From Campylobacterota bacterium (GTDB lineage: Bacteria; Campylobacterota; Campylobacteria; Campylobacterales; Sulfurimonadaceae): 64,000 nucleotides of DNA. Location: positions 28,194 through 92,193 of the forward strand of contig JAYEKO010000015.1 in NCBI GenBank assembly GCA_034661055.1. Reading direction: 5' to 3'. The position numbers and the translations under genes are program-made. Positions 1,334 through 62,688 of this stretch are shown here, in pieces (positions within the stretch are counted from its first letter, which is position 1; each line of letters begins with the position of its first letter). Under the pieces are notes generated by a model. The model saw only the letters and a program-made list of their open reading frames with translations, was not told the DNA's origin and made no database searches.

Positions 1334-1713
1334 TCCAATAAACTTATTATAATACTCCATACAGATTCACTTGCTTTAAGCTTAGATTCAAATGCTTTTT
1401 TGGCTCTTAATTCCCATTTATTTACATGTAAATTATCTCTTTCTTGATTTAAAAAATTCTTTTTTTTGCCCAAAGAGAACTCTTCAAACAGTTGTGCCAA
1501 ATTCTGCTTTCTCTGTTTTCGTAAGCCATAGAGGTTTGATTGTGACATACTGGCACTATGAAGCAGTTTCTTTGAGCTACCATCTTTATCAGTAGGTTTG
1601 TCAAACATGCTAACACCATAGTCAAGCAGTGAATATTTATCATTTTGCAACTCCTCTAAAACAGAGTACCCTATAGATGTTATTCCTAAATCTAAACTCA
1701 ATATTTTCTTCAT
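1288..1713 (-). pseudogene. cas9: Cas9 N-terminal fragment (RuvC-I motif, degenerate bridge helix, start of REC), truncated after ~130 aa
   Basis: MKKILSLDLGITSIGYSVLEE...DYGVSMFDK...GLRKQRKQNLAQLFEEFSL...WELRAKKAFESKL aligns by eye with the C. jejuni Cas9 N-terminus (MARILAFDIGISSIGWAFSEN...DCGVRIFTK...RRLARSARKRLARRKARLNHLKHLIANEFKL...YELRFRALNELLS). The ORF then runs into the 3' end of the convergent gene at 797-1333. No HNH, RuvC-II/III, cas1/cas2 or array is present. Confidence 0.6.
1420..1433. repeat. ATTTACATGTAAAT, a 14-bp perfect copy of the over-represented palindrome
   Basis: Read directly; lies in the Cas9 remnant, where it encodes NLHVNK. Confidence 0.9.
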
Positions 1714-1778
1714 AACAACCTCACAAAAAATAACTTCACTGATTATACGATGAAATAGTTTAGGCTATACTTTCACTT

Positions 1779-2687
1779 ATGAGTTCCATACTTTTTTCGG
1801 TCTTAGGCATTTACATCTTTATAGCCGTTGGCTTTATTGCCAAAATGAGCTTTAAAGAGAAAATTGATGACAAGACTATTACTATTTTATCGGTCTATTT
1901 TTTACAGATTTTCTTAACCTTCTGGGGACTTCTTAAACGTCCTATTGACAGCTCACTACTCCTTGCCCCGTCACTTTATGCTTTTATTGTCTTTATTGTT
2001 CTTGTGGGCTCAGTTTTGGTGGCTAGACAACTTTTTAATGATCCTAAAGAACGTTCCATTGCCACAGTAGCAGCACTCATTGGAAACACCGGAAATCTTG
2101 GCATTCCTTTAGGTATTGCGCTCTTTGGGGAGCAGAGCATTCCCTACACCACCATTATTAACCTAGTCAATGTCTTTATTGTCTACACAGTTGGAGTCTA
2201 TTTCTACTCTCGTGGTGAGTTTGATGTTAAGTCATCACTTTTAAACATTGTTAAGCTTCCAATTTTATGGGCAGCGCTCATTGCCATTTTACTAAATTTT
2301 TATGGCTATGTACCATCAGATGTCATAGATAAAACGCTACAGATGGGAGCTTACGCTTCAATGGTGCTACAGCTAGTCCTTTTTGGAATCTATCTCTACG
2401 GCACAAAAATACATGTAATTAACAGAACTCTTATTGCGTGGGTAAGTGGCGTCAAGTTTATTGTGCTTCCTCTTGTAGCCTATGCAATATTAAGTCTCTT
2501 TAGTATTGATCCCATGATTAAAAGTATTCTATTTTTAGAACTTATTGTCCCTCTTGCTGTGGCAAATGTAAATCTAGGCTCGCTGTATGAGTGCCGACCA
2601 AAAGACATTACTGCTCTAGTATTCATCACATCATTACTCTTTTTAGCTATTATTTTCATAGCAATTAAAATTATGAAAACATTTTAA
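1779..2687 (+). CDS. AEC (auxin efflux carrier) family permease
   Basis: 302 aa polytopic membrane protein of ~10 TM. Its N-terminal and central segments (IGNTGNLGIPL) are typical of AEC transporters. Confidence 0.75.
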   Translation: MSSILFSVLGIYIFIAVGFIAKMSFKEKIDDKTITILSVYFLQIFLTFWGLLKRPIDSSLLLAPSLYAFIVFIVLVGSVLVARQLFNDPKERSIATVAALIGNTGNLGIPLGIALFGEQSIPYTTIINLVNVFIVYTVGVYFYSRGEFDVKSSLLNIVKLPILWAALIAILLNFYGYVPSDVIDKTLQMGAYASMVLQLVLFGIYLYGTKIHVINRTLIAWVSGVKFIVLPLVAYAILSLFSIDPMIKSILFLELIVPLAVANVNLGSLYECRPKDITALVFITSLLFLAIIFIAIKIMKTF

Positions 2688-2690
2688 AGG

Positions 2691-3050
2691 ATGCCCATGG
2701 CATTTGAACTTACTGATGAAAACTATGTTACAACCGTTGAAGACACTAAGGTAGCGATGTTTATTGACTTTTACTCTCCCACTTGCGGCCCCTGCCAAGA
2801 GATACAGCCTCTAATGGATCTTTTAGAAGCCTACTTTGGAGATCGGGCATTAATCTGTAAAGTCAATGTACAGCAGAACCCAAAACTTGCTAAAAAATAT
2901 GAAATTAAAAGTGTACCGTTTTGTGTCAGTGTCGGTGAAGACAAGATGATTAAAGATTATGAACTTGGAGCAGGTTCTATTGACCGGTACATACGAATGG
3001 TTGAAAAAGCAATTGGCGAAAAAGGCTTTTTTAGACGCATGTTTGGATAG
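2691..3050 (+). CDS. Thioredoxin-family protein (CGPC active site)
   Basis: FYSPTCGPCQEIQPLMDLL followed by KYEIKSVPF, the classical thioredoxin motifs. The start may be the second ATG at 2697, which has better spacing to AAGGA. Confidence 0.8.
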   Translation: MPMAFELTDENYVTTVEDTKVAMFIDFYSPTCGPCQEIQPLMDLLEAYFGDRALICKVNVQQNPKLAKKYEIKSVPFCVSVGEDKMIKDYELGAGSIDRYIRMVEKAIGEKGFFRRMFG

Positions 3051-3052
3051 CA

Positions 3053-4555
3053 ATGCAGACATTAGACTTCTCTCAATCCATCCTTATCGCTCCAAAAATC
3101 TACTGGATTGGAATGTACCTTGAAAATGACCCCTTCCAGTGTCATCCTTACCTTATTGAAAATGGAAACGAATCTATTTTAGTCGATCCGGGCAGTATGC
3201 TAGAATTTGATGCCGTCGTTAAAAAAGTCAACTCCATTACTAATCTTGGCAATATTAAATACATTATTTTACATCATCAAGACCCTGACCTCTGTGCTTC
3301 GGTTCCTGATTTAGAGAAGCTCATTAATCGAGACGACCTGCAAATTATTACTCACTCTCGTATGACACCACTGATTAAGCACTATTTAACTACCTCTAGC
3401 TATTATGAGATTGATAAACACGAGCTAGAACTTATAACACAAAACGGTTATACGCTAGAGTTTTTAACCACACCATACTGCCACTCTCCTGGTGCTTTTG
3501 TAAGTTATGATCCCGCTAGCAGTGTGTTATTCTCAGGTGATATTTTTGGTGGTATTGATGAGTCATGGGAGTTTTTTGCAAAGGATGACTATTTTGAAAA
3601 GGCCAAACAGTTTCATGCCGAGTATATGCCAAGTAAAGATATCTTTAACTACGCTCTAAAAAAAATCGAAGCCCTTAACTTAGAACTCATCGCACCTCAG
3701 CACGGCTCAATTATTCAAAAACCATACATTTCCGGTTTAATCGCTCAGATGAAAAACTTAGATTGCGGGCTCTATATTGAAGAGAAATACAATAGTGAAC
3801 TCTTAAATACAATTGAAGAACTCAAAGCTAAAGACCTTGCTCTAAAAGAGCGTGAGACCCTGCTGTTTCAGCAGTCTAAAATGGCAGCAATGGGAGAGAT
3901 GATTGGCAATATTGCACACCAGTGGAGACAACCCCTTGCCATTGTCAACACGCTTATTGCCATCTCAAAAGAGAAAAATAATTACGACATGTTGGAAAAA
4001 GATGATCTTACATGTAAATTGGCTGAGATGGAAAAGAATATCGCCTATATGTCCAGCACTATTGAAGACTTTATGGACTTTTTTAAACCAAACAAAGAGA
4101 AACGTCCCTTTAGTGTTCGCAAGGCTGTCACTCAAGCTCTTGAGGTGCTCTATCCAAGCATTAAGAAATATGGAGTTGAGATTAGAGTCAATGGAGACCA
4201 CTCTTTAGTAGTTAACGGCTACATTAATGAGTATATCCAAGCTGTAATATCTATTCTCTCCAATGCAAAAGATGCCCTCATAGAAAATGATGTTACAACG
4301 CCATGTATTACTATCGATTTTTTTATTAACGAAAGTCGTGCCATATTAGAGATTTCAGATAATGCTGGCGGCATTGACAGTAAAATTATAGATCGTATTT
4401 TTGAACCCTATTTTACAACAAAGCATCAATCCATAGGAACAGGCCTAGGGCTCTACATAGCTAAAATGATTATTGAAGGCAGTATGGATGGTAGCATTGA
4501 AGCTAAAAACATTGAAAATGGCGCAAAATTTTGTATAGGAGTTGCACTTGCATAA
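3053..4555 (+). CDS. Soluble sensor histidine kinase with an N-terminal metallo-beta-lactamase / flavodiiron-like (ODP-like) domain
   Basis: N-terminal domain: ILHHQDPDLC, PYCHSPG-x18-SGD and APQHG, matching MBL/di-iron ligand spacing. C-terminal domains: HisKA IAHQWRQPL, then HATPase DNAGGI and GTGLGLYIA. No TM segment seen. Confidence 0.8.
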   Translation: MQTLDFSQSILIAPKIYWIGMYLENDPFQCHPYLIENGNESILVDPGSMLEFDAVVKKVNSITNLGNIKYIILHHQDPDLCASVPDLEKLINRDDLQIITHSRMTPLIKHYLTTSSYYEIDKHELELITQNGYTLEFLTTPYCHSPGAFVSYDPASSVLFSGDIFGGIDESWEFFAKDDYFEKAKQFHAEYMPSKDIFNYALKKIEALNLELIAPQHGSIIQKPYISGLIAQMKNLDCGLYIEEKYNSELLNTIEELKAKDLALKERETLLFQQSKMAAMGEMIGNIAHQWRQPLAIVNTLIAISKEKNNYDMLEKDDLTCKLAEMEKNIAYMSSTIEDFMDFFKPNKEKRPFSVRKAVTQALEVLYPSIKKYGVEIRVNGDHSLVVNGYINEYIQAVISILSNAKDALIENDVTTPCITIDFFINESRAILEISDNAGGIDSKIIDRIFEPYFTTKHQSIGTGLGLYIAKMIIEGSMDGSIEAKNIENGAKFCIGVALA

Positions 4556-5270: not shown

Positions 5271-5326
5271 TTTTGACATAATATGACAAACTCTTTTCCT
5301 ACAATTCTCCTGTGTGTGTTATGTCA
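5271..5326. promoter_or_regulatory. Candidate operator: inverted copies of TTTTGACATAA, plus a TGACA-N5-TGACA direct repeat
   Basis: TTTTGACATAA at 5271-5281; its exact reverse complement TTATGTCAAAA at 5319-5329 (extends past this feature's 5326 end); a second TGACA at 5284-5288. A third TGACATAAC at 5487-5495 lies 29 nt before the nrdD ATG. Confidence 0.3.
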
Positions 5327-5419: not shown

Positions 5420-5470
5420 AATATACATGTAAAACCTTGCGAGGTCTGCGCGAGGTTTTACATGTATATT
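5420..5470. repeat. 51-nt hairpin: 18-bp perfect inverted repeat, each arm carrying a TACATGTA motif copy
   Basis: AATATACATGTAAAACCT (5420-5437) pairs with AGGTTTTACATGTATATT (5453-5470). The inner GCG/CGC pairs extend the stem. Located in the RR-nrdD intergenic region. Confidence 0.85.
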
Positions 5471-7786: not shown

Positions 7787-8456
7787 AAAGCCTCTCTATG
7801 ACATTACACCGTTTAGCACGTTAGATTATCCTGATCATCTTGCAGCTATCTTCTGGTTTGCAGGGTGTAATATGCGGTGTGACTACTGTTATAACGCTAA
7901 TATTGTCTTTAGTAAAGGTTCTCTTAGTGCTGATGATGCGCTAACATTTTTAAAACAGCGAACAGGACTGCTCGATGCAGTCGTACTCTCTGGTGGTGAA
8001 GCAACACTTTTTGAAAACATTATAGAGCTTGCTCAACAGATTAAAGAGCTTGGTTTTAAAATTAAACTTGACACTAACGGAACTGCTCCAAAAGTAGTTG
8101 AGACTCTGCTAAAAAAAGAGCTCATTGATTATATTGCGTTAGACTACAAAGCTCCCAAACAGAAGTTTTCTACTATCACTCATAATCAGCAGTTTACATT
8201 TTTTAATTATACGCTTGAACTTCTCATTAATTCAGAGACTCCATTTGAAGTAAGAACGACACTTCATTCGGATCTATTAAATGAGTGCGATATTAACTCT
8301 ATTATTGAAGATTTATATGCTAAAGGCTATCGAAATAGTTACTATATTCAAAACTTTTTGTATGATGAAAATACTATAGGAAAACTAAGTACTCCAACAA
8401 AAGGTTTTGATAAAAATAGACTGAACTCACTTTTACATGTAGAATTTCGAAACTAA
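7728..8456 (+). CDS. nrdG: Anaerobic RNR activating enzyme (radical SAM)
   Basis: YDITPFSTLDYPDHLAAIFWFAGCNMRCDYCYN (CxxxCxxC) and VVLSGGEATL. The track start is TTG at 7728, but GTG at 7776 is more likely because the first ~16 codons overlap the glycyl-radical ORF. Confidence 0.85.
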   Translation: MVKKVNTKSVNSLKRTVQPKKPLYDITPFSTLDYPDHLAAIFWFAGCNMRCDYCYNANIVFSKGSLSADDALTFLKQRTGLLDAVVLSGGEATLFENIIELAQQIKELGFKIKLDTNGTAPKVVETLLKKELIDYIALDYKAPKQKFSTITHNQQFTFFNYTLELLINSETPFEVRTTLHSDLLNECDINSIIEDLYAKGYRNSYYIQNFLYDENTIGKLSTPTKGFDKNRLNSLLHVEFRN

Positions 8457-8860: not shown

Positions 8861-9782
8861 CTATGAAAGTTTTAATATTCTCTACAATCTTTGCAATAAG
8901 TGAGTCACGTGCTTCAACAGATGTCCATGCAATATGTGGAGTGATGTAAAGTGCCTCTTGGTTTTTTACATGTAAAAGTGGATGATTCTCTTTCATAGGC
9001 TCAACCTCTAAAACATCAAGCCCCACTTTAATATCTTTTACATCAATAATTCGTGACAATGCCTCTTCATCAACTATTCCGCCACGACCAAGATTAAGTA
9101 AAATAGCACCATCTTTAAGTTGCAGAAGTTCTGATTGAGAGATAAGCCCTTTAGTGTTAGTGTTAAGTGGTGCATGAATGGTAATGATGTCACACGTCTC
9201 AAGCATACTGCTTAAACCAACTTTAGGGTACGTGCTATCGTTATTTTTATATGACGTTGAATAGTAACAGACCTCAGCACCAAAAGCAGTAGCGACGTTA
9301 GCCACCCCTTTACCAATCTCACCTAAACCGATAATACCCCATTTTTTACCTTTTACCTCAAAAAATGGCTTATCCACATGAGTAAAAATTGGACTCTTTG
9401 CCCATGATCCCTCTTTTACATAGTTGTCGTAATAACCTGAACTTCCTGCTAAATAAAAGAGCATTGAAAAGGTGTGCTGAATCACCGACTGTGTTGAGTA
9501 CCCTGCTACATTTTTTACTTCAATATTTTGAGAAGAGGCCGCATCTAAATCTACATTATTCATACCGGTAGCGGCCACACAGATGAGCTTTAGATTTTTA
9601 CATGTAATCATCATCTCTGCAGTTATAACTACTTTGTTAGTTACAATAACATCAGCATTAACAATACGCTCTTGTGTCTCACCGGCAGTTGTTGTCTGAA
9701 AAATCTCTACACTACCAAACTGCTCAAATGCACTAATATCAGTTTCGCCAAATGTGGCTGCATCTAAAATAACAATTTTCAT
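8853..9782 (-). CDS. D-isomer-specific 2-hydroxyacid dehydrogenase (glycerate dehydrogenase-like)
   Basis: NAD fold GIIGLGEIGKGVA, plus LNLGRGGIVDE and PHIAWTS catalytic-region motifs. Confidence 0.85.
   Translation of the reverse strand: MKIVILDAATFGETDISAFEQFGSVEIFQTTTAGETQERIVNADVIVTNKVVITAEMMITCKNLKLICVAATGMNNVDLDAASSQNIEVKNVAGYSTQSVIQHTFSMLFYLAGSSGYYDNYVKEGSWAKSPIFTHVDKPFFEVKGKKWGIIGLGEIGKGVANVATAFGAEVCYYSTSYKNNDSTYPKVGLSSMLETCDIITIHAPLNTNTKGLISQSELLQLKDGAILLNLGRGGIVDEEALSRIIDVKDIKVGLDVLEVEPMKENHPLLHVKNQEALYITPHIAWTSVEARDSLIAKIVENIKTFIDG
8964..8977. repeat. TTTTACATGTAAAA, a 14-bp perfect copy of the over-represented palindrome
   Basis: Read directly; inside the dehydrogenase CDS, where it encodes LLHVKN. 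Confidence 0.9.
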
Positions 9783-17301: not shown

Positions 17302-18279
17302 ATGAAAGCCATCTCACTTTTTAGCGGCGGTTTAGACTCTGCCTTGGCGATTAAACTTGTAGTAAATCAAGGAATAGATGTCATTGCCTGTAATATAAAT
17401 ACCGGATTTGGAGCCACTAAGGATCGCGGTGAACATATGAGAAATATGTGCAAACAAGTAGGTGCTGAGTTTATGGTGATTGATATTCAGAGTGAGTACC
17501 TACAAGAGGTACTTTTTGATCCAAAATATGGTTACGGAAAACATTTTAACCCTTGTATTGACTGTCATGCCAAGATGTTTGAGGTCGCCAAACGTATTAT
17601 GGATGATGTTGGAGCAAGCTTTTTAATTAGTGGTGAAGTTCTTGGTCAACGTCCAATGAGCCAAAATGCAGATGCTTTGGCTAAAGTACTTGACTTAAGC
17701 AGTTGTGATGGGCTACTTATACGTCCACTCTCAGCAAAACTACTAGCACCTACTATTGCCGAAGAGCAAGGTTGGGTTGATAGAGAAAAACTTGAAGGCA
17801 TTAGTGGAAGAAGTCGTGATCGTCAGATGGAACTGGTTAAAGAGTATGAGTTAAAAGATTATGAGAGTCCAGGGGGTGGATGCCTCCTAACAGATGAGAA
17901 CTTTACTAAAAAAATGCATGACTTTGTCGCTTATGAACCATTAGAGGTCCGTGATATTCCCGTACTTAAGTTTGGTCGCCACTTAAGACTTGATGATGGT
18001 GCCAAGCTTGTTGTTGGTCGAAACAAGGATGAAAATGCCTTTATTCAAGATATTGACAACAGCAAGTTTTTACATGTAAAAACTGTTGGTATTCCAGGAC
18101 CCCATGCACTACTCTCAAGCAGTGCCAGTGATGCAGACAAAGCGCTTGCTGCAAAAATAGTTCTAAACTACTGTAAAACATCATCAGGCTCTCAATACAA
18201 CCTTGATTTTGACGGCACACTAGTTGAAGCATCTCCATTTCCAACACGAGAAGAGGCGACTAAATATTCAATTTTATAA
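17302..18279 (+). CDS. PP-loop ATP pyrophosphatase family protein (ThiI/MnmA-like)
   Basis: SLFSGGLDSALA PP-loop (SGGxDS) and PCIDCH cysteine motif. Confidence 0.65.
   Translation: MKAISLFSGGLDSALAIKLVVNQGIDVIACNINTGFGATKDRGEHMRNMCKQVGAEFMVIDIQSEYLQEVLFDPKYGYGKHFNPCIDCHAKMFEVAKRIMDDVGASFLISGEVLGQRPMSQNADALAKVLDLSSCDGLLIRPLSAKLLAPTIAEEQGWVDREKLEGISGRSRDRQMELVKEYELKDYESPGGGCLLTDENFTKKMHDFVAYEPLEVRDIPVLKFGRHLRLDDGAKLVVGRNKDENAFIQDIDNSKFLHVKTVGIPGPHALLSSSASDADKALAAKIVLNYCKTSSGSQYNLDFDGTLVEASPFPTREEATKYSIL
18065..18084. repeat. AGTTTTTACATGTAAAAACT, a 20-bp perfect palindrome and the longest motif copy
   Basis: Read directly; inside the PP-loop CDS, where it encodes KFLHVKT. Confidence 0.95.
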
Positions 18280-19669: not shown

Positions 19670-20736
19670 TACAACTCCTGTTTCTCTTTCTCTTTTAACT
19701 GTCCACATGCCGCACTAATATCAATACCTTTTGAATCACGAATAGTACACAGCAGTCCATGATTAACTAGGTACTCTTGAAACTCAATCATACTTTTTTT
19801 GCTAGGTCGTTCATATGGAGTATCAGGATAGGGATTAAAATAGATTAGGTTCACCTTCGCTTTAATACCGTGTAAAAGTTTGACCAATTTTTTAGCCGAC
19901 TGCTGATCATCATTTTTACCTTTAATGACAAGGTACTCAAACATTACACGTTTTCGGGTATCGATTGGAAAGCGTTTGATTGCCTCAATAATGGAGGCGA
20001 TATTATGTGCTTTATTCATAGGAATTAACTCTGTACGAAGGTCATCATCTACTGCATGAAGAGAGATAGCAATATGAACACCCAAATCCATCTCCCCAAG
20101 CTTATCTATCTTACTACTAAGTCCACTCGTTGAGACCGTTTGACGTTTTGGTGAGATAGCAAAACCGTCATCATCAGCAAATATTTTAATGGCTTTGGCA
20201 AGATTGTCCAGATTATCTAGTGGTTCACCCATTCCCATATAGACAATATTTAAGCGTCTGTTAGCTGCTATGTTATTATCTTTTTTAAGCTCTAAAACTT
20301 GTGCTACTATCTCACCTGAAGTTAGGTCACGGGTAAATCCACCTTTAGCAGTAAGACAGAAAGCACATCCTACTTTACAGCCCACTTGCGTGGAGACACA
20401 GACCGTATATTTCGCATGATGTAGCAGATTTCCCTCACTATCGAGTTCGTCTTCTTTCATCCTAAGAAGAACACTCTCTACAGTTTTTCCATCAGGAAGC
20501 TCAAATAGGTACTTAATAGTACCGTCACTTGACTCCTCTTTTTTTAAGATACTCAGTGGTGTAATGTTATATTTTACATGTAAATCTTCACGCATCACTT
20601 TTGGAAGATTTTTCATCTCTTCAAAACTGTTGGCATATTGCGCGTAGAGCCATCCGAAGATCTGTTTGGCACGAAAAGAGGGTTTAATAGCTTGAGCAAG
20701 TTCCTCTTTGGTATAGTCTAAAATAGTTGGCTTCAT
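19669..20736 (-). CDS. rlmN: 23S rRNA/tRNA (adenine-C2)-methyltransferase, radical SAM
   Basis: [16 protein letters not shown] radical-SAM motif, MGMGEPLDN, and the C-terminal ACGQL Cys. Confidence 0.9.
20573..20584. repeat. TTTACATGTAAA motif copy (12 bp)
   Basis: Read directly; inside rlmN, where it encodes DLHVKY. Confidence 0.9.
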
Positions 20737-21272
20737 GAAGTTAGCTCTCTGATTCTCTGATTTACATGTAGTGTCAGTTTTGCTTTGGCCGCTTCATGAT
20801 TTTTTAAAAAGTCAGCATGGGCACTATTATTACAAAAATTTGTTACGCAAAAGACTCCGCCAGCTGGAATATTAAACTCCTGTGCAACTCTAAGCACCGA
20901 AAAGAATTCCATGTTTTCTAGACCAATTCCCAAAGGCAGAAATTTCTGTACCAAATCAAAGTCCGTAGAGATATAGTTTGATGAGTTAATGACAATATCT
21001 TTTATATTTTTTGTTTGCGTTGAGACAACGTTATCTAAAGGCGTGTAGCCTATATTTTGTAAAAACGATAACTCAATGTTAGATGCTGTTTTAGATTCGA
21101 CAATATCTAAAATTTGATGTTCACCGTAGCTTCCCGCACTTCCCACAAACAGCAGAAATTCCGGTTTATCAAAAAGACAGAGTCTTGTTAAGTTAATAGC
21201 TGTTTCAACAAGCCCTACACCAGTAGGTGTCGCAAAATCAAAGGTTTCACTATTTCCTGCACAGATAATCAT
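20733..21272 (-). CDS. Nucleoside phosphorylase-family (PNP_UDP_1-like) protein
   Basis: [11 protein letters not shown]...FVGSAGSYG and ENMEFFS resemble MTA/SAH-nucleosidase or futalosine-hydrolase-type folds. It is short (179 aa). Confidence 0.45.
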
Positions 21273-22027
21273 AAGCGTACCGCAATATTATTATCATGTA
21301 GATAGTGTTTTAAATCCATGATATCGATCTCTTTGTAATGAAATATAGAAGCAGCAAGTGCGGCATCAGCACCATATTCAAATGCCTCTTTAATATGCTC
21401 CATTGTCCCTGCCCCACCACTGGCAATAATAGGGATGTTAAGTAGTTCACTTAGCTCTTGTGTAATAGGAATGTCAAAGCCTTCCTTAGTGCCATCTGCA
21501 TCCATAGAAGTTAAAAGAATCTCTCCTGCTCCACGGTCTGCTACCTCCTTAGCCCATGCTACCGCATCAATGCCAGTATCGACACGACCGCCATTGAGAT
21601 AGACATTATATCGACCATTAGTCTGCTTAACATCAATAGCTACTACAATACATTGCGATCCAAAACGTTTAGCTCCCTCATTAATAAGCTCAGGACGTTT
21701 AATTGCTGCGGAGTTAACGCTGACCTTGTCGCAACCTACATGTAAAAGTGCATAAATATCTTCTAGTTTCCTAATTCCTCCACCGACAGTCAATGGAATA
21801 AAAACCTCTTTAGCCACTTTCTCAACAATGTCTACAATAGTGTCGCGACCTTCATGTGAAGCTCCAATGTCTAAAAAAGTAATCTCATCAGCACCCTCTT
21901 CATTATAACGCTTAGCTACCTCAACAGGATCACCTGCATCACGCAAACCTACAAAGTTAACACCTTTAACAACACGTCCATCTTTAACATCAAGACAGGG
22001 AATAATTCTTTTGGCAAAATAGTCCAT
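21269..22027 (-). CDS. hisF: Imidazole glycerol phosphate synthase cyclase subunit
   Basis: [16 protein letters not shown]...LDIGAS...ASGGAG; canonical HisF. Confidence 0.95.
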
Positions 22028-22124
22028 ATAATATCTCTTGTTCTTTTATTACCGCAAGTATAAAGAAAAATCACTTAACAACAGTGTATAATTCATTTTT
22101 ACATGTAATTTACAGGAAGTATTT

Positions 22125-22571: not shown

Positions 22572-23388
22572 CTTCACCTTACTACATGCCACATGGCTTA
22601 CCACACTTTTTAGCTCATTTGCTCTACCTCAAGGTGAACTAAAAGGGCAACTTTATGACTTTTCAGAAATTATCTATCGACATCTGCGCTGGGTAGAAAA
22701 TGCTCTATTAAAACAAGACGTTATTATAAGTTACGAACGTCCCAACCTAAACTTTAAATATAATAATATTGGCAATATGATTTCTACATGTAAAATTATG
22801 CTTGAAGGACTATTAGAACAGTATGAAGGTGATGATGAGCTTTCAAAACGTATTTCTGCAGATTTACAATACATAATTTTTGTACTCAGCACCAATTTAA
22901 CCGACGAAACACCACTTAAAGCATTCAATCGTGAGCTAAAACTAAGTGACGAAACAGAACTTACTCCTGAAACTATAATGACTTTAGTGACGTTTTTATT
23001 TGATGAGTCCTATAAGGAGTATGAACTTATTGTTATCTACTCTTATGCACAAACACGGATTGACAATCAGCGAATTCATGAAATTTTTCAAATTTTAATT
23101 GATGAATCAAAATTTCATCTCAAATCTTTTGCACAGATTATGACAGATTTAGGAATTTTAACCATTCCTCGTTTTATAACCTCAGAAATTTATGCCTTTG
23201 ACTCTTTAGAGAAATTTCTTCTCGATGGTATTGACGAAGAAGAAGCTGCAAAAGAAGAGTGTCGCGCTATTGCGCAGAGTATTAATCATAAACCATTGCG
23301 TAACTTTTTCAACTTTATTAACACTCAAGAGAGTTACCATATCGCTTTAATGGAAGAAGCATTAGAAATTTTTAGAAACTTAAAATAA
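22558..23388 (+). CDS. Ferritin-like / rubrerythrin-like di-iron carboxylate domain protein
   Basis: The C-terminal half carries DESYKEYE ... DESKFH ... EEEAAKEE ... QESYH, an E...ExxH x2 pattern. Overlaps the IscU-like gene by 14 nt. Confidence 0.45.
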   Translation: MNQNNFTLLHATWLTTLFSSFALPQGELKGQLYDFSEIIYRHLRWVENALLKQDVIISYERPNLNFKYNNIGNMISTCKIMLEGLLEQYEGDDELSKRISADLQYIIFVLSTNLTDETPLKAFNRELKLSDETELTPETIMTLVTFLFDESYKEYELIVIYSYAQTRIDNQRIHEIFQILIDESKFHLKSFAQIMTDLGILTIPRFITSEIYAFDSLEKFLLDGIDEEEAAKEECRAIAQSINHKPLRNFFNFINTQESYHIALMEEALEIFRNLK

Positions 23389-31226: not shown

Positions 31227-31255
31227 TTTTACATGTAATTTAATTACATGTAAAA
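31227..31255. repeat. 29-bp perfect palindrome made of two TTACATGTAA copies
   Basis: TTTTACATGTAATT T AATTACATGTAAAA. Intergenic, between the stop of the 31271-32095 gene and the thrS start. Confidence 0.9.
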
Positions 31256-31270
31256 ATAGATGCAGAGCAG

Positions 31271-34696: not shown

Positions 34697-35315
34697 TCAT
34701 ATATCCTACGCCTCTGACATTGCGTATCTCAACTCCTAATCTACTTTTTAGTTTATTTACATGTACACGTAGCGACGCATCAGATGCAATATTTAGAAGA
34801 TCTAAAAGCTGCTCTTTATCTATAACGTGATTAATATTTTGAATGAGAAGATCAAAAATTAGAAGCTGTGTCTCACTTAAGTTTGCCAGTTTTCCATCTT
34901 GATACAGCTCTTTTGTATTTGGTTCATATTCCAAGTTCATATAGCTGATTTTAGATGTTTTATGCATCACTTTTGATTTAACACGAATTAAAAGCTCGTC
35001 AGGGTCAAATGGCTTTTTAATATAGTCATCAGCTCCTACCTCAAAACCATGCGCCATGGAAGCTATGTCCACTAAAGCCGTCATAAAAATTGCAGGGGTG
35101 TCATCATCAGCATCTCGTAAGCTTTTTAGAAGTTCAAAACCATCAATTTCAGGAACATTGACATCAAATATATAGAGTTTGTACTCATTATCGTAAGAGA
35201 GGTCTAATGCTTCTTCGCCATCAAGCGCAACATCAACACTGTAGCCCTCATCTTCTAAAAGCTCCTGAAGCGTCTGAGCAAGTATCTGGTCATCTTCTAA
35301 TAATAAAATATCCAT
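34683..35315 (-). CDS. OmpR-type response regulator
   Basis: MDILLLEDD...YIFDVNVPEIDG...KKPF and a winged-helix C-terminus VRGVGYMI. Confidence 0.9.
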   Translation of the reverse strand: MDILLLEDDQILAQTLQELLEDEGYSVDVALDGEEALDLSYDNEYKLYIFDVNVPEIDGFELLKSLRDADDDTPAIFMTALVDIASMAHGFEVGADDYIKKPFDPDELLIRVKSKVMHKTSKISYMNLEYEPNTKELYQDGKLANLSETQLLIFDLLIQNINHVIDKEQLLDLLNIASDASLRVHVNKLKSRLGVEIRNVRGVGYMIEKV

Positions 35316-39117: not shown

Positions 39118-40172
39118 CTTTTAACACTCACGTTTGAGAGTGTTGGAAGCAGTGATAGTTTTGCCTCAGATGCTGTAGCAACATCTACTGAAGGACAGGG
39201 TGAAATAAGAGCATCATCACTATTTTGTGCTTTAATATTTACATGTAATGTCTCAAATTTGCCTTGAATATACTGCACAACAGAGACTCCCTCTTTATTA
39301 TGCACAAGCGTATTAAGTGGCACACTGCATCCAGCTATCTTATTAGAATATATCTCCACATTAATATACGCTCCATTAGCTTGTGTCAGTGTTGTAATAA
39401 CTTCTGCCTCCATAACATCAAGGCCACCACTAGCATCAGCATAGTGTGAGTCAAGCCTTGCTACCTCATTACCATTCATGTAGACGTTTTGACCCACACT
39501 AAGTTTAAAATCATTCTGAGGAATATAACGAAGTAGTAATTTTTTGTTAGTCGAATTCAATGAAAGAATTGTCTTACCAGGAAGTGCCATATCTCCATCT
39601 CGCAGAAAAATAGTTCCAACTTTACCATCATAAGGTGCTCTAAGCTTCAAATAATCCAATTGGACTGTTTTAGCTTTGATATTCTCTCTTGTAGTAATTA
39701 GTGCCGCTTTTTTTGCTCTGTATAGCACCTCTGAAGCATCAAGTTTCTCCTTGGCCAGACCACCAGCTTTGAAAAGTTTCTGATTTTTTGTATATACACC
39801 TTTAGTATATGTAACATCACTGCTCAAGCTACTTAAATTTGCTTGGAGCCCATTAATTGCCGCTTGCACTTCTCTGGCATCAATAGTAACAAGAAGATCA
39901 CCCTTGCTAACTAACTGCGACTCTTTTACATGTAAATTTGTAATAAAACCACTCATCTTTGAAGACACGTTAGCACGCTTAGCAGATTGCACCTGGGCTA
40001 AAAAACTACGCTTTTTACGAATACTCTTATTTGTGGGAGTCACTACTTTAACAGTATAAGAGGGTAGCAATGCTACTCCATTTCCCGCCACAGAAGCTTT
40101 TTTCTCTTTTAGAAACTTTATGGCTACAAAACCTAAGAGCAGTATTAAAATTATTACTATTACTTTTTTCAT
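39114..40172 (-). CDS. RND periplasmic adaptor (membrane fusion protein, HlyD family)
   Basis: N-terminal anchor, lipoyl/hairpin pattern (GDLLVTID...QLDYLKLRAPYDGKVG). Confidence 0.85.
   Translation of the reverse strand: MKKVIVIILILLLGFVAIKFLKEKKASVAGNGVALLPSYTVKVVTPTNKSIRKKRSFLAQVQSAKRANVSSKMSGFITNLHVKESQLVSKGDLLVTIDAREVQAAINGLQANLSSLSSDVTYTKGVYTKNQKLFKAGGLAKEKLDASEVLYRAKKAALITTRENIKAKTVQLDYLKLRAPYDGKVGTIFLRDGDMALPGKTILSLNSTNKKLLLRYIPQNDFKLSVGQNVYMNGNEVARLDSHYADASGGLDVMEAEVITTLTQANGAYINVEIYSNKIAGCSVPLNTLVHNKEGVSVVQYIQGKFETLHVNIKAQNSDDALISPCPSVDVATASEAKLSLLPTLSNVSVKR
39925..39936. repeat. TTTACATGTAAA motif copy (12 bp)
   Basis: Read directly; inside the MFP CDS, where it encodes NLHVKE. 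Confidence 0.9.
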
Positions 40173-44804: not shown

Positions 44805-44907
44805 TTTAAGACCTAAAAGTTTTACATGTATTTTAGCAGAAGTTTAAAAGGTGGGATGAGAAAGGAGGGGGAACCTTATCTCATTTACTATTTGGAGTGT
44901 AACTATT

Positions 44908-46065: not shown

Positions 46066-46134
46066 TAAAAAATCCCCTAACATTAAATTTGACGAATTCT
46101 ATAACAATTTGATTACCTAAAGGTTACAAGAATG

Positions 46135-46827
46135 TTACAGATCTTGATTATGCAGCGTCATCTCATAGACCCATTGCTGCAATGGAAACATCGCTTCATA
46201 GGTCTCATAGAGCGTGTGAATCAGCTCTTTAGAGTGAATTGCTTTAGCTGAAAAGGTTTTATAGGTAAACATACTGGCAAACTTGGCAAGCTCCTCGAAC
46301 TCCATATTTTTTTCAAATCCACGAGGCAGTCGTTTATATTTTGGCTCAGGTAGTAAAAAACCCTTAGATTTCATATCTTCTAAAATTACATGTAAATTTT
46401 TACAGTGCTCTCTATTTTTAATATATTCTCTGTAAATTACCAAAGTCTCACTAGAAAACCCTCTAATGCCCACAGCCACAAACAGTTCATCGGGAGAAAA
46501 ATGCAGGTAAAAAGAGCTGCTCTGCATCCGCTTGCCGCTGCCTTGCCAAAATATAAGACCAATTCTGCTTTTTATGGGAGTTTTATCTTTGGAGAAACGG
46601 ATATCACGGTATATGCGAAAAAGAGAGCCATTAATTTTTGGGATGGCATTAACAGTAGGTTCGAGTGCTTGAAGATGTTCTCCTATCTCCGTAGCCGCCT
46701 CACGACTTGGCTGTAAAATAAGGGCTTCATACTCACTTCTATGTGCTTCAAACCACTCTTTGGTATTGTTTTTTCGGATACGTTCTAAAAAATTTAGACT
46801 CTCTTTGGAAAAACAGACAAAACTCAT
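46135..46827 (-). CDS. DUF2461 (TIGR02453) family protein
   Basis: LERIRKNNTKEWFEAHRSEYE and FRIYRDIRFSKDKTPIK are signature segments of this family. Confidence 0.7.
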   Translation of the reverse strand: MSFVCFSKESLNFLERIRKNNTKEWFEAHRSEYEALILQPSREAATEIGEHLQALEPTVNAIPKINGSLFRIYRDIRFSKDKTPIKSRIGLIFWQGSGKRMQSSSFYLHFSPDELFVAVGIRGFSSETLVIYREYIKNREHCKNLHVILEDMKSKGFLLPEPKYKRLPRGFEKNMEFEELAKFASMFTYKTFSAKAIHSKELIHTLYETYEAMFPLQQWVYEMTLHNQDL

Positions 46828-46864: not shown

Positions 46865-47302
46865 TTAAAAATAGAATTTCTCCAAACACTCTTTAAAATC
46901 ACTGCACCGGACACAACGTACAAAACGCTGCTTCTTCTTTAGTAAACTATAAGAAGTTCCATTGGCAAAAGAGATAACCCAAGCATAAGGAGCATTCCAA
47001 GAGTAAGTACTTGATGTCCAGTACTCTTTCGCTTTGTAGTAGATGAAACCTTTTAAAATCTTTCGACCCTGAGGGCGATTACTATCTACAAGTGTAGAGA
47101 GCTCTTCTTCACTTGGTAGCCACCAATCATCATAATTAGCAATATCAAGCTCTTCACAGTACTCTTTTGCCTCTTCCCAAGTAAAAATGACACCCTTGTT
47201 CTCAGGAATATCCTGCCACATGAGTGCCGTTTTATTATCTATTACAAATGGAGTAGCTAAGAGTAAATTACATGTAAATAGTAAAAAGCCAATGAATTTC
47301 AT
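46865..47302 (-). CDS. DUF1566 (Lcl C-terminal-like) secreted protein
   Basis: Signal peptide. MWQD...TWEEAKEYCEEL...YDDWWLPSEEELSTL is typical of DUF1566. The start shares 1 nt with the receptor stop. Confidence 0.6.
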   Translation of the reverse strand: MKFIGFLLFTCNLLLATPFVIDNKTALMWQDIPENKGVIFTWEEAKEYCEELDIANYDDWWLPSEEELSTLVDSNRPQGRKILKGFIYYKAKEYWTSSTYSWNAPYAWVISFANGTSYSLLKKKQRFVRCVRCSDFKECLEKFYF

Positions 47303-58503: not shown

Positions 58504-59475
58504 ATGAAACCCTGTAAAATAAACAACTATAGTAAATATATTCTCTCTCTTATATTGATTTCATCTGTACTAAGTAGTGCAGAACAACTGTGCAGAACTC
58601 AGATGATAATGGGAACGTATGCATCATTGTGTGCTCCTATTAAGCAGAAGAAGGTTATTGAAGAAGGTTTTAATCGTCTTAAAAGTGTGGAGCAGTCCCT
58701 CTCAAGCTATAGTAAAAATGCATATATCTACAAACTCAATAAAAATTTACATGTAAATCTCAACATTGACACCTATGAAGCACTTTTAAAATCGTACAGA
58801 TACTATATACTAAGCGATGGATATTTTAATATTATGATAGGCTCTATTACAAAAAAAATATACCGTTTTGGTGACAATGAACATCTTGCAAAGGAGTCAG
58901 AATTAGATAGCGCCTCTGTCTTAATAGATGGCATTGATTTTAATGAAGAAGAGGCAAGATTAACATCTAATAGCAGTGTTGATTTAGGAGGTATGGGTAA
59001 AGGTTTTGGAGTAGATAAGGTACATGAGATTTATAAGCATCAAAATATTAAAGAGGGCAAGATTGCTCTAAGTGGCGATATACGCTGCGTCTCTACTTGT
59101 AAAATTTCAATTACCAATCCATTCAAGCCTCACAAAGCTATTGCTACCTTTAACACAAAACACAAAGGTATGGGTATCTCTACAAGTGGAAACTATTATC
59201 GCTATGTTCAAAACAAGAGACATAATCATCTTATTAACCCTAAAATAAAACGTTCAGCAATAATTTTTGCTTCTATTACGCTTATAGGCAATATTTCTAG
59301 TAGTGATTTAGACGCATATGCAACAGCTGCTTCAGTAATGCCTCTGCAACAAGCTATCTCATTTCTAAATTCGCAACGTCTGGGATATATTCTTTTTACT
59401 ACTGATGCGACTAAAATAGTTAGCTCTAATATAGATCAGTTTGTAAATAATCTATGCATAGAGCCATCTTATTAG
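58504..59475 (+). CDS. apbE: FAD:protein FMN transferase (ApbE family)
   Basis: MIMGTYASL..., VDLGGMGKGFGVDK and ISTSGNY motifs; signal/lipoprotein-like N-terminus. Confidence 0.85.
   Translation: MKPCKINNYSKYILSLILISSVLSSAEQLCRTQMIMGTYASLCAPIKQKKVIEEGFNRLKSVEQSLSSYSKNAYIYKLNKNLHVNLNIDTYEALLKSYRYYILSDGYFNIMIGSITKKIYRFGDNEHLAKESELDSASVLIDGIDFNEEEARLTSNSSVDLGGMGKGFGVDKVHEIYKHQNIKEGKIALSGDIRCVSTCKISITNPFKPHKAIATFNTKHKGMGISTSGNYYRYVQNKRHNHLINPKIKRSAIIFASITLIGNISSSDLDAYATAASVMPLQQAISFLNSQRLGYILFTTDATKIVSSNIDQFVNNLCIEPSY
58745..58758. repeat. ATTTACATGTAAAT, a 14-bp perfect motif copy
   Basis: Read directly; inside apbE, where it encodes NLHVNL. Confidence 0.9.
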
Positions 59476-60112: not shown

Positions 60113-60115
60113 GAT

Positions 60116-60292: not shown

Positions 60293-60300
60293 AATAAGTT

Positions 60301-60993: not shown

Positions 60994-60998
60994 AAAGA
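60969..60998. terminator. AT-rich 13-bp-stem hairpin across the overlapping 3' ends of convergent genes
   Basis: TCTTTTTAAAGAA (60969-60981), loop CACT, TTCTTTAAAAAGA (60986-60998). Confidence 0.4.
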
Positions 60999-61390
60999 CG
61001 CAGAGAAAATCCTACTCCTAGCATCACTAATATTACTACACTTAAAAGTTTAATCCATGTAAAAAAAGCACTCTTAAACACAACAATAAACAGTGGTGCC
61101 ATTAGACTAGAGAGCGCCGCTACAAACATAGTTATAAACCACCATCTTGCTTTATATCTTAGTGATGTAAATAGAAAAAAATGCCCTAGCACCATAATGA
61201 ATATTCCCATACCACCTAAATGAGGATATGAAAGTTCCAATAACCCGTCATAGCTTTTAACACGGTAATACTCTAGTGTTCCCTCAAGACTAACACCTGT
61301 TTTAAGGTAAAACATGACCAAGCCTGTCATAAGCAACAGTACTGAAAAAAGTGCAAAATAGCTAATTCCTACTTTATATAATCTATACAT
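60974..61390 (-). CDS. 4-TM membrane protein, unknown family
   Basis: 138 aa. Its topology and loop pattern are similar to the upstream 156-aa protein. Confidence 0.5.
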   Translation of the reverse strand: MYRLYKVGISYFALFSVLLLMTGLVMFYLKTGVSLEGTLEYYRVKSYDGLLELSYPHLGGMGIFIMVLGHFFLFTSLRYKARWWFITMFVAALSSLMAPLFIVVFKSAFFTWIKLLSVVILVMLGVGFSLRLFKESVL

Positions 61391-61860
61391 TACCTAAAGA
61401 GCCTATAGAGTGATTCCAAACTCATCATAAGTGCTAAAACATGCCAGAAGCATACTGCCAGCAACCAAAAAGGAGTTATAATAGCACTACTTTTAAATGC
61501 AATCAGCAGTAATACAACAGAAGCAAAAGCAGAGATATTAACACTATGTATAATCCAGTATGTTTTTTTTGATTTAGATGCCAATCTCCCATAGATGGCA
61601 CAAAGAACAAGCAGTGTCATCATCATAAAAAAGATATCTGCGTGAATAATCTCTAAAAGTGCTTCTAGTGAAATGGGGTCTAAAAACTCCTCTTCATTAC
61701 CATAAAGTGTGGTATTAACACTATTTACATGTAAACCTATCTGGGACTCTTTTTGAAAAAGATCGCTTACTAAAAACAGCAGTAAAAAAAAGATAACACC
61801 CGTAAGCAGTGGACGCATTAGAGTATCTTTAGCGAGATCTTTTACTAAGGTGAATTTCAC
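61390..61860 (-). CDS. 4-TM membrane protein, unknown family
   Basis: 156 aa. Start and stop are coupled to neighbouring genes (4-nt overlap upstream, 1-nt overlap downstream). Confidence 0.5.
   Translation of the reverse strand: MKFTLVKDLAKDTLMRPLLTGVIFFLLLFLVSDLFQKESQIGLHVNSVNTTLYGNEEEFLDPISLEALLEIIHADIFFMMMTLLVLCAIYGRLASKSKKTYWIIHSVNISAFASVVLLLIAFKSSAIITPFWLLAVCFWHVLALMMSLESLYRLFR
61724..61735. repeat. TTTACATGTAAA motif copy (12 bp)
   Basis: Read directly; inside the membrane-protein CDS, where it encodes GLHVNS. Confidence 0.9.
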
Positions 61861-62384
61861 TTTTTAATCACCTCATTGAAAATGGCTAATGCTAATCTTG
61901 CCCCTTCACTAATAGTACGTGCACTCATTGTAGCGCCACTAATAGCAGTAACACCATCACCTAGACGAAGTGTTGCGGTATCATTAATATCACTAAACTG
62001 TTTCATCCAATCATCTGTTGGTAGATACTCCATTGGCTCTTTAAAAGAGACCATTTCAGCAGCTTTTAACACTCCATTGGGGGTGACAATATAGAGGACA
62101 ACCGCCTTTTTGGTACGTACGGTTTTATTCAGTAAAATACCGACTCCTTTTACGCCATCTTTTTTTGCTGTGTACACCCGTACAATTTTACTATCAAGCT
62201 TTACTTTAGCTATATTCTCTACAATTTTAGCTTCAGATGATTTAAGTAATATACTTTTTTTACTCACTTGTACTTCACTGCCTAGAACCTCTTTTAGCGC
62301 ATCTTGTGGTGTAATCAATACAGATGCAAAAAGTGGCAGACTAAAGAGGATCGTAATCATCCATCTCATAGATATTCTCCTCAT
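61857..62384 (-). CDS. Periplasmic FMN-binding domain protein
   Basis: Signal peptide and AISGATMSARTISEG (FMN_bind SGAT.S motif, the flavinylation site type used by ApbE). The start may be an internal ATG (62369 or 62360). Confidence 0.6.
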   Translation of the reverse strand: MRRISMRWMITILFSLPLFASVLITPQDALKEVLGSEVQVSKKSILLKSSEAKIVENIAKVKLDSKIVRVYTAKKDGVKGVGILLNKTVRTKKAVVLYIVTPNGVLKAAEMVSFKEPMEYLPTDDWMKQFSDINDTATLRLGDGVTAISGATMSARTISEGARLALAIFNEVIKK

Positions 62385-62688
62385 AATTTGGTGGTACTTT
62401 TACAAGGATGTACTCCTTGTGACTCTTGTTGGCAACTTGAAGCCAACCCATCTCTCTAAAAAAGTTTACATGTCGTGCTACCGTGGGATAACTTGCCGAT
62501 TTTCGGTACTCACTACTTAATATTAGCACGAGTTTGTCAATGGTCGTGGGACAACTCTGTTTGTAGAGTATCTTGAGCACCTGTTCACGCTGATCTGAAT
62601 AGCGCAAATCATGCTCTTTTAAATGTTTATAAAGCGATTCTCTAAAAACAGAGAGGCTTTTTCGTTGTTTTGGACTGATATATATCAT
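62341..62688 (-). CDS. Fur-family-like winged-helix regulator lacking the metal-binding/dimerisation domain
   Basis: LKEHDLRYSDQREQVLKILYKQ...SYPTVARHVNFFREMGWL parallels the Fur N-domain (LK..GL+.T.QR..IL..L ... TVYR.L..F...G). Only 115 aa, with no HHxH/CxxC motifs. Confidence 0.5.
   Translation of the reverse strand: MIYISPKQRKSLSVFRESLYKHLKEHDLRYSDQREQVLKILYKQSCPTTIDKLVLILSSEYRKSASYPTVARHVNFFREMGWLQVANKSHKEYILVKVPPNYEENIYEMDDYDPL

Follow-up and report, generated by a model that had tools for sequence, protein, structure and literature searches.

We analyzed a 64,000-nucleotide stretch of DNA from a member of the Sulfurimonadaceae (GenBank assembly GCA_034661055.1, contig JAYEKO010000015.1, positions 28,194 to 92,193; referred to here as the window) and found that the palindrome TTACATGTAA was scattered through it in great excess. 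The word was lineage specific, hyper-abundant and non-mobile, it occurred in dialects, and it was maintained by a force that acted at the level of the DNA; we hold this descriptive part of the account with high confidence. The results also showed that the word was one dialect in a family of such words within the Sulfurimonadaceae. By analogy with the DNA uptake sequence (DUS) of the Neisseriaceae and the uptake signal sequence (USS) of the Pasteurellaceae, the word may be a self-DNA tag that is used in natural transformation; this is the reading we favor, and we give it slightly less than an even chance.

Abundance of the word in the window

Direct counting in the window yielded 34 copies of ACATGT, 26 copies of the octamer TACATGTA, 16 copies of the decamer TTACATGTAA and 7 copies of the 12-mer TTTACATGTAAA. 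These were exactly the numbers that an initial annotation, made by eye from the sequence, had reported; the positions that it listed also stood, except for one ACATGT, which begins at 44824 and not at 44823, the first base of its octamer, and its estimate of the base composition was close to the computed values (A 0.314, T 0.318, G 0.170 and C 0.198). The density of the word was about 0.4 copies per kb, or about one copy per 2.5 kb. The local consensus was a-TTTACATGTAAA-t around the invariant core TACATGTA. Counts of the half sites were 17 for TTTACATGTA and 14 for TACATGTAAA, and at least one perfect half site was kept in 24 of the 26 octamers.

Base composition and short-range order did not account for these numbers. 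Dinucleotide shuffles of the window produced 1.43 ± 1.06 octamers (maximum of 5) and 0.15 decamers, and Markov models of orders 1 to 4 predicted 0.9 to 2.4 octamers, 0.1 to 0.34 decamers and 0.02 to 0.08 12-mers. When all octamers were ranked against a third-order model, TACATGTA was the most over-represented octamer in the window (z of about 37); only its own sub-words came behind it, and the best unrelated word had a z below 8. In the mismatch spectrum of the 12-mer, sites with zero to four mismatches numbered 7, 13, 12, 81 and 394, compared to expectations of 0.02, 0.66, 9.1, 75 and 420. Thus, the excess amounted to about 20 to 25 sites and ended at two mismatches.

The flanks of the 34 window sites had nothing in common beyond A or T at positions ±5 to ±7, and no extended flanking homology existed between the copies. 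A dispersed repeat, a repetitive extragenic palindromic (REP) element or a miniature inverted-repeat transposable element (MITE) was ruled out because the flanks were unrelated, no element structure was present and 77% of the copies were inside genes. Spacing was approximately exponential (mean of 2 kb, coefficient of variation of 0.97) when it was pooled over the 19 positive sequences that are described below (377 kb, 166 sites, related loci included), and neither periodicity nor clustering of sites was seen at the scale sampled. Regular or clustered spacing was therefore rejected. An 11.5-kb word-free gap at 47.3 to 58.7 kb was not significant, and the word-free stretches of the window did not correspond to compositional islands. 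Restriction avoidance, or an effect of CATG itself, was also rejected: the word was enriched and not avoided, the observed/expected ratio of CATG was about 1.0, and ACATGT outside the full word was as rare as, and no rarer than, in relatives.

Effect of the word on codon choice and amino acid sequence

Coding sequences (CDSs) were defined as the window open reading frames (ORFs) of at least 100 amino acids. They covered 91% of the window, and NCBIfam or Pfam mostly confirmed them as unrelated ordinary genes. The gene annotation covered 46 of about 66 window ORFs and included nrdD and nrdG, dnaG, rlmN, hisF, RNase J, thrS, parts of a resistance-nodulation-division (RND) pump, two-component systems and an N-terminal remnant of Cas9. 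The identities that had been proposed for the Cas9 remnant, nrdG, rlmN, hisF, RNase J and the RND permease were confirmed, and the match to ApbE was weak.

Twenty of the window octamers were in CDSs and six were intergenic. As the initial annotation had noted, the coding copies used only two of the three frames: 16 were read as xTA-CAT-GTA and the other four as T-ACA-TGT-A (Thr-Cys); TAC-ATG-TA was never used. The pooled ratio over the 19 positive sequences was 92:25:1. The 16 x-His-Val copies consisted of 13 Leu-His-Val (LHV) copies, one Ile-His-Val copy, one Val-His-Val copy and one LHV copy in which Leu was encoded by CTA.

Two codon-aware nulls were applied to the 20 coding copies. A synonymous shuffle that kept every protein produced 2.73 CDS octamers (maximum of 9 in 300 shuffles), and a codon-order shuffle produced 0.93. 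The excess thus survived both, in keeping with the earlier proposal that a DNA-level force placed the word in unrelated genes. Relatives gave similar values under the same two nulls: 13 octamers in locus L008 compared to 1.7 and 0.3, and 9 in locus L080, which is 53% G+C, compared to 0.2 and 0.1. The tripeptide LHV, for which the initial annotation had called for a check, was expected 2.4 times in the window and occurred 16 times; TTA CAT GTA was the spelling in 13 of these cases. His-Val dipeptides overall were only mildly raised (31 compared to 23 expected).

Because the excess remained in shuffles that keep the proteins, and because the LHV excess was spelled TTA CAT GTA, we concluded that the word has shifted amino acid sequence as well as codon choice. 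A force acting on the DNA kept the word in place, was strong enough to alter codons and amino acids, and gave way only where the word would have introduced a stop codon or made a peptide harmful. The word was also enriched about 3.4-fold in non-coding DNA, which held 29% of the sites in 8.5% of the DNA (pooled, p = 2e-14; window alone, p = 0.02).

Clades and dialects among relatives

Relatives were sampled as loci around homologs of the window RNase J, with one genome per GTDB species; 80 loci were counted, and gene calls in them were mechanical ORFs. The distribution of the word over genomes was judged from the 64-kb window, 18 loci of 10 to 22 kb and four independent metagenome loci. The RNase J relatives assigned the window to the Sulfurimonadaceae (Campylobacterota); the best match of the window RNase J was in a Sulfurimonas metagenome-assembled genome (MAG), with 92% amino acid identity, and a look-up of the exact protein gave no record.

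Enrichment was all or none. Eighteen of the 80 RNase J loci, which spanned G+C contents of 29 to 53%, carried 2.8 to 9 octamers per 10 kb, and the other 62 carried about 0 to 1. On a neighbor-joining tree of RNase J, the positives formed three coherent clades: clade A (the window and L001 to L004), clade B (L021, L080, L013, L010, L015 and L054) and clade C (L051, L018, L008, L012, L005, L014, L006 and L007). Word-free lineages, namely Sulfuricurvum, core Sulfurimonas, L009, L011, L016 and L022, lay between the positive clades, and on this single-gene tree one origin with losses and several origins both fit. In an independent sample of metagenome contigs around nrdD, L252 and L253 (84 to 85% nrdD identity) carried 3 to 4 octamers per 10 kb (z of 15 to 18) and L269 carried 8 octamers in 14 kb; the more distant AT-rich relatives among these contigs carried zero octamers. 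Enrichment was not confined to the window, then, which was one of the three tests that the initial annotation had set for itself; the other two, codon-aware nulls and flanking homology, likewise did not refute it.

The core TTACATGTAA was constant, and the dialects differed by clade at positions ±5 to ±7, with the form aTTTACATGTAAAt in the window lineage and gCTTACATGTAAGc or TCTACATGTAGA elsewhere. Specifically, the consensus was a-TTTACATGTAAA-t in clade A and in L252 and L253, (g)CTTACATGTAAG(c) in clades B and C, and (a)TCTACATGTAGA(g) in L257. The last of these, an nrdD-related metagenome contig (sites 4137, 4162 and 8464), had five octamers in 19 kb and no copy of TTACATGTAA. All of the word-bearing relatives that we found were uncultured MAGs, which may be why the word has gone unnoticed so far.

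The protein imprint followed the clades and their dialects. The observed/expected ratio of LHV was 4.3 in clade A, 4.6 in clade B and 6.8 in clade C, compared to 1.2 in other relatives; clade A had LHVN and LHVK, and clades B and C had LHVK and LHVS. When the RNase J motif D[I/L]HVSGH was compared in 80 genomes, an Ile-to-Leu change encoded by TTA CAT GTA was seen in clade A only, and the other 75 genomes mostly had Ile, with scattered His and Val codons. These data bear on an ordinary cause of the excess, that is, chance, a codon or peptide bias such as selection for Leu-His-Val, or a mobile REP or MITE repeat. Such a cause could be suspected because 16 of the 20 coding copies are read as x-His-Val and one copy falls at the conserved HVSGH motif. 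However, protein-keeping shuffles gave 2.7 copies and not 20, six copies were intergenic and four were in another frame, 13 of the 16 LHV tripeptides used one spelling, word-free relatives had no LHV excess, relatives encoded the same His-Val by other codons, and the flanks were unrelated. Chance, peptide or codon bias and a dispersed repeat were thus refuted by the shuffles, the frames, the codon spelling, the RNase J motif and the flanks, and the likelihood that we assign to an ordinary cause is negligible.

Individual sites were conserved and also turned over. In within-clade comparisons, which were not phylogenetically independent, the orthologous octamer was identical at 63% of word sites compared to 23% of background octamers, and one-mismatch orthologs were rarer than background (14% compared to 31%). 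Gains were seen at window sites 18071 and 20575, both of which were missing in L002 to L004 (at 20575, the orthologous position was present without the word), and site 21737 was common to L003 only. The C-to-T deamination variant TATATGTA was not depleted (17 observed compared to 16.7 expected), and C-to-T decayed orthologs persisted in L005 and L007. A very-short-patch repair bias of the Dcm/Vsr type was rejected on these grounds.

Sister words in palindrome-free lineages

Per-locus k-mer ranking indicated that several palindrome-free lineages carried an outstanding word of their own. The sister word tTGGCATGTGGAAa was found in L019, L020, L028, L029, L064, L042 and L069 (core Sulfurimonas), and L056 carried a variant of it, TTGGCATGTG[c/g]. 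The density of the sister word was about 0.5 per kb, and 23% of its copies were intergenic. This word, also given here as TTGGCATGTGGAA, was non-palindromic and had the CATGT core in common with the palindrome. In L029, GGCATGTGG had 10 copies compared to 0.05 in shuffles (examples at 5290-5298 and 7783-7791), and the CDS copies of the sister word numbered 12, compared to 0.5 and 0.3 under codon-aware nulls. Inverted pairs of TTGGCATGTGGAA formed 12- to 15-bp hairpins of -23 to -28 kcal/mol (L028, 11857-11886; L020, 11921-11953 and 4533-4566), located right behind the stop codon of RNase J (L028 and L020) or between convergent genes (L020).

Another Sulfurimonas clade (RNase J loci L027, L031, L034 and L041, and nrdD locus L276) carried the word (C)TGCGTTT(A); its 7-mer had about 35 copies per 21 kb, divided evenly between the strands, and the octamers had z values of 9 to 12. 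Other examples besides TTGGCATGTGGAA were CTGCGTTTA and TTGGGATGTAG. The latter was the top word of L026 (e.g., at 4016, 9067 and 12801), where GGATGTA was found 22 times in 21.9 kb (9 on the plus strand and 13 on the minus strand). We also observed that TTGGGATGTAG resembled the TTGGCATGTGG word of relatives of L026.

The words were mutually exclusive between lineages. Three of them had T-T-x-x-[C/G]-ATGT in common, and TTGGCATGTGGAA and TTGGGATGTAG shared ATGT. At the orthologs of window site 20763, the palindrome clades had TTACATGTAA and L029 had GGCATGTGGAA, an in situ replacement on a conserved His-Val CATGT seed. In a separate case, TGCGGCATGTGGACA (the ortholog of the 6514 region of the window; position 6515 in L029) was kept in almost every lineage, the window and Sulfuricurvum among them, and some sister-word matches therefore reflected a conserved peptide and not a word system. 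It is possible, and we suggest it tentatively, that the Sulfurimonadaceae have diversifying uptake or self-recognition words, both palindromic (the TTACATGTAA dialects) and asymmetric (TTGGCATGTGGAA, TTGGGATGTAG and CTGCGTTTA), that would be read by a co-evolving competence receptor.

The sister words also bear on two other explanations. One is that the word is a Chi-like signal that guides AddAB recombination or a signal like the FtsK-orienting polar sequences (KOPS) that guides FtsK translocation. Signals of this kind are short, lineage specific and over-represented, we know of no identified Chi sequence for the AddAB of Campylobacterota, and a Chi-like role has been discussed for the cyanobacterial highly iterated palindrome HIP1 (10.1101/2024.09.10.611283). 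However, Chi and KOPS are polar and strand skewed, and a palindrome cannot carry polarity. In addition, TTGGCATGTGGAA was unskewed in five of six loci (orientations of 25:29, compared to 12:1 in L056), and known Chi sites are shorter than the 12-bp palindrome and less strongly enriched. We consider a role of this kind very improbable.

The other explanation is that the copies are dense sites for an abundant dimeric chromosome protein (nucleoid associated, Noc/ParB-like or SlmA-like) and are selected for chromosome organization. Dimeric DNA-binding proteins typically have a footprint like this one, a 12-bp palindrome whose outer positions are graded; the sites were also conserved, and their spacing looked random, with gaps that averaged about 2 kb. 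However, the known chromosome-protein systems use tens of sites per genome and not roughly a thousand, the words of the sister lineages were asymmetric and present in both orientations, a fast turnover of dialects between close lineages would be unusual for core chromosome architecture, and the spacing lacked periodicity or clustering at the sampled scale. Thus, we regard a chromosome-protein role as doubtful.

A possible role in natural transformation

The density of the word, its tolerated frames, its imprint on the proteome, its intergenic enrichment, its hairpin pairs, its dialects, its sister words and the conservation of its sites with turnover are together the signature of DUS and USS systems, and it is on this signature that the self-DNA tag reading is based. 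The initial annotation had likened the word to DUS, USS and HIP1 without deciding for a USS-like or a HIP-like type, and this likeness was strengthened by the dialects, the sister words, the orthologous conservation, the intergenic enrichment and the lineage-specific LHV excess. If the word is a self-DNA tag, a competence-associated receptor would bind it on extracellular double-stranded DNA. The receptor would probably bind as a symmetric dimer because the word is a 12-bp palindrome, and the word may be recognized in methylated form, like RAATTY in Campylobacter jejuni and in the case proposed for HIP1. Fragments that carry the word would be preferentially taken up and recombined, new copies would spread and old copies would be restored by molecular drive together with selection, and divergence of the receptor between lineages would give rise to the dialects.

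Several results weigh against this reading. At no position did one-mismatch octamers exceed expectation, which is sharper than the graded decay of the Haemophilus USS; only the outer positions ±5 to ±7 were graded, and the half sites were not enriched. Neither the classical DUS nor the classical USS is palindromic. No competence gene was found among the 46 of about 66 window ORFs that were annotated. The two window hairpin pairs had no T run and were not called as intrinsic terminators, and a terminator role for them was not supported for the same reason. The pooled statistics included related loci and are not fully independent. Finally, orthologous conservation fits any selected function and not uptake alone.

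The sharp core is also relevant to a HIP1-type iterated palindrome with no role in uptake. Under this explanation, modeled on what Elhai 2015 and Xu et al. 2018 proposed for GCGATCGC, a resident and probably orphan methyltransferase would act on CATG, ACATGT or TACATGTA, and a repair bias linked to methylation or a role in chromosome organization would create and maintain the word. HIP1-type words are palindromic octamers that are enriched 15- to 300-fold in coding and non-coding DNA (PMC5861425), and the window word showed octamer enrichment of this type in both. Like HIP1, the word had a perfect palindromic octamer core that was enriched 20- to 30-fold (PMC5861425), its sites were conserved between genomes as has been reported for HIP1, and other words took its place in sub-lineages like alternate HIPs (PMC4390886). 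In addition, the core contains CATG, a common methyltransferase site, and ACATGT outside the full context was not enriched, like CGATCG outside HIP1.

In other respects, the data did not fit a HIP1-type explanation. The word was specific over 12 to 14 bp, which is longer than usual methyltransferase sites, and its outer positions were graded and varied by dialect; the sister words of related lineages were non-palindromic 11- to 13-mers. Elhai's ratchet predicts enriched outer variants; the outer one-off octamer variants and the half sites were at or below expectation, and a ratchet of this type was rejected. The ratchet model also needs MutS1/MutL mismatch repair, which many Campylobacterota do not have. 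A very-short-patch repair signature was missing, CATG was near its expected frequency, and no DNA methyltransferase gene was found among the 46 of about 66 window ORFs that were annotated. The 12- to 14-bp specificity, the asymmetric sister words and the missing ratchet and deamination signatures weaken a HIP1-type explanation, which we regard as the main rival but as rather unlikely.

Among the papers open to our literature search, none had TACATGTA, TTACATGTAA or the sister word in the setting of a bacterial genome, and the search yielded nothing relevant that linked Sulfurimonas to uptake sequences or competence, which agreed with the earlier statement that the word was undescribed for this lineage. 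What is unusual here, within the known class of hyper-abundant uptake- or HIP-type words, is a palindromic dialect, several dialect switches in one family and a shared CATGT core. The results also illustrate the strength of DNA-level drive on proteins, as seen in the 4- to 7-fold excess of Leu-His-Val. Just two families, the Neisseriaceae and the Pasteurellaceae, have self-DNA sequence tags that are firmly established, to which the C. jejuni methylation case and the HIP1 proposal can be added. If the word is indeed a self-DNA tag, it would give Campylobacterota their first sequence-defined uptake system, and only two or three such systems would have been known before it. The family of words would then be a natural series of uptake-word dialect switching and palindrome formation, in which the many independent switches would help to find the receptor by co-variation, and the CATG core could bridge classical DUS and USS and the methylation-dependent tags (RAATTY and HIP1). 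The words would also mark gene-flow boundaries among uncultured lineages and MAGs, and word and dialect together could aid binning and the detection of foreign DNA. Lastly, a tag would predict natural competence, and hence genetic tools, in the sulfur-oxidizing Sulfurimonadaceae, which are environmentally dominant and hard to manipulate.

Individual copies and other words found alongside

The copies in the window are listed in Table 1. The 20-bp perfect palindrome and the two close pairs (5424/5459 and 31230/31245) that had been pointed out earlier were both present, and the two hairpin pairs were located just 3' of genes. Paired hairpin-forming copies at such positions would be a secondary use of the word. 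The Cas9 remnant that carries the first copy encodes 141 amino acids and is truncated: its match to the 1070-position Cas9 model (E = 2.6e-15) was limited to the first 114 positions. The remnant overlaps the end of a NifU-like gene.

Table 1. Copies of the word in the window, with the genes that carry or flank them, and copies in a viral contig
Copy	Position	Location	Reading or remark
12-mer TTTACATGTAAA	1423..1430	Cas9 N-terminal remnant ORF 1288-1713(-)	NLHVNK
Octamer only (AATACATGTAAT)	2410..2417	Permease ORF 1779-2687(+)	KIHVIN
Decamer	4009..4016	Sensor histidine kinase 3053-4555(+)	Thr-Cys frame, DLTCKL; site kept in metagenome relatives L252 and L253
Inverted pair, octamers 5424 and 5459	5421..5469	Between response-regulator gene end (5234) and nrdD start (5524)	21-bp hairpin, -35 kcal/mol
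Copy	8434..8441	nrdG 7728-8456(+)	LLHVEF
12-mer	8967..8974	D-2-hydroxyacid dehydrogenase 8853-9782(-)	LLHVKN
Decamer	9599..9606	D-2-hydroxyacid dehydrogenase 8853-9782(-)	Thr-Cys frame, MITCKN
20-bp perfect palindrome AGTTTTTACATGTAAAAACT	18065..18084	ORF 17302-18279(+)	FLHVKT; lineage-specific gain, relatives have TTTACATCTCAA
12-mer	20575..20582	rlmN 19669-20736(-)	DLHVKY
Copy	20763..20770	ORF 20733-21272(-)	TLHVNQ; kept in L002 to L004 and clade C; sister word in L029
Copy	21737..21744	hisF 21269-22027(-)	LLHVGC
Decamer, intergenic	22100..22107	Divergent region between hisF and NifU-like gene starting at 22125	
Copy	22785..22792	Unknown ORF 22558-23388(+)	Thr-Cys frame, ISTCKI
Copy	25590..25597	RNase J	Universally conserved D[I/L]HVSGH motif
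Two decamers 15 bp apart (octamers 31230/31245)	31227..31256	15 bp downstream of gene 31271-32095(-), upstream of thrS	13-bp hairpin, -12 kcal/mol
Copy	34758..34765	Response regulator 34683-35315(-)	RVHVNK
Decamer	38545..38552	RND permease 36028-39117(-)	ELHVIV
Decamer	39240..39247	RND adaptor 39114-40172(-)	TLHVNI
12-mer	39927..39934	RND adaptor 39114-40172(-)	NLHVKE
Copy, intergenic	44823..44830	Between ORFs 44373-44804(-) and 44908-46083(-)	
Decamer	46387..46394	TIGR02453-family gene 46135-46827(-)	NLHVIL
Decamer	47269..47276	ORF 46865-47302(-)	Thr-Cys frame, LFTCNL
12-mer	58748..58755	ApbE-like gene 58504-59475(+), weak ApbE match	NLHVNL
12-mer	61726..61733	Unknown ORF 61390-61860(-)	GLHVNS
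Viral-contig copies	L085 10566-10579, L116 3729-3742, L127 7139-7152		At least one intergenic

Viral contigs that were scanned with 14-mers of both dialects mostly gave single chance matches. One of them, IMGVR_UViG_3300020042_006565 (55 kb, 59% G+C), had three copies of the clade B and C dialect that were extended to (C)GCTTACATGTAAGC(G), and its nine large ORFs had zero NCBIfam matches. These copies may represent operators of a phage, or they may point to a word-bearing host of high G+C content. A different 12-bp palindrome, AGAATCGATTCT, occurred every 240 to 360 bp over about 0.7 kb (L017, 11275-11900; L036, 19386-19860). This was a local cluster and not a genome-wide word, and it probably marks a regulatory or repeat region.

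Eight Campylobacter-related metagenome contigs around nrdD (L293, L298, L301, L302, L305, L306, L308 and L315; 41 to 48% G+C) had 7 to 8 copies of AAATTT, an instance of RAATTY, per kb. In L305, the sole contig that was searched, the nrdD product was nearest to those of Campylobacter sp. RM16192 (89%) and C. curvus (85%). AAATTT occurred 175 times in this contig, compared to 26.4 ± 4.5 in dinucleotide shuffles, and 86 times in its CDSs, compared to 31 in the synonymous shuffle and 16 in the codon-order shuffle.

Comparison with known systems

The word was compared with REP, MITE, Chi and KOPS elements as well. REP elements are likewise palindromic repeats, but the copies here were inside genes and without the flanking homology or element structure of REP or MITE elements. 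Chi and KOPS are likewise short, over-represented and lineage specific, but they are polar, which a palindrome cannot be.

Within the phylum, the palindromic, methylated motif RAATTY of C. jejuni is the sole established case of uptake discrimination according to the summary given in 10.1101/2024.09.10.611283. RAATTY is methylated by CtsM and is, as proposed for the word, a palindromic self-DNA tag for transformation; it differs in being a degenerate 6-mer that is defined by methylation, whereas the word is a specific 10- to 12-mer with a much lower density. AAATTT was several-fold over-represented in the Campylobacter contigs that we found.

Cyanobacterial HIP1 (GCGATCGC), which recent preprints have recast as a methylation-dependent uptake tag (10.1101/2024.09.10.611283; 10.64898/2026.06.24.733823), and the alternate HIPs are similar in that a palindromic octamer core is enriched tens of fold in coding and non-coding DNA, in that orthologous sites are conserved and in that other words replace it in some sub-lineages. 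The word differs from HIP1 because it is AT rich and not GC rich and reaches 12 to 14 bp with dialects, and because its outer one-off variants were not enriched and its sister words are non-palindromic.

The Pasteurellaceae USS (core AAGTGCGGT or ACAAGCGGT, with AT-rich flanks) is asymmetric and has many one-mismatch copies, in contrast to the sharp and symmetric core seen here. The two are alike in being hyper-abundant, in having graded flanking positions and at least two lineage types, in leaving a measurable imprint on proteins (LHV in our case) and in being enriched in non-coding DNA.

The Neisseriaceae DUS (the 12-mer ATGCCGTCTGAA and its dialects, for which the receptor is the minor pilin ComP) differs from the word in that the latter is a perfect palindrome, belongs to another phylum and forms hairpin pairs that are not canonical terminators. 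In both cases, however, a word of 10 to 12 bp is present at about 0.4 to 1 copy per kb, lies within unrelated genes in tolerated frames and is enriched between genes. Both have lineage dialects with an invariant core and very few one-mismatch copies, and both form inverted-pair hairpins just after genes; our examples of such hairpins came from the window and, with greater clarity, from the sister word in L020 and L028.

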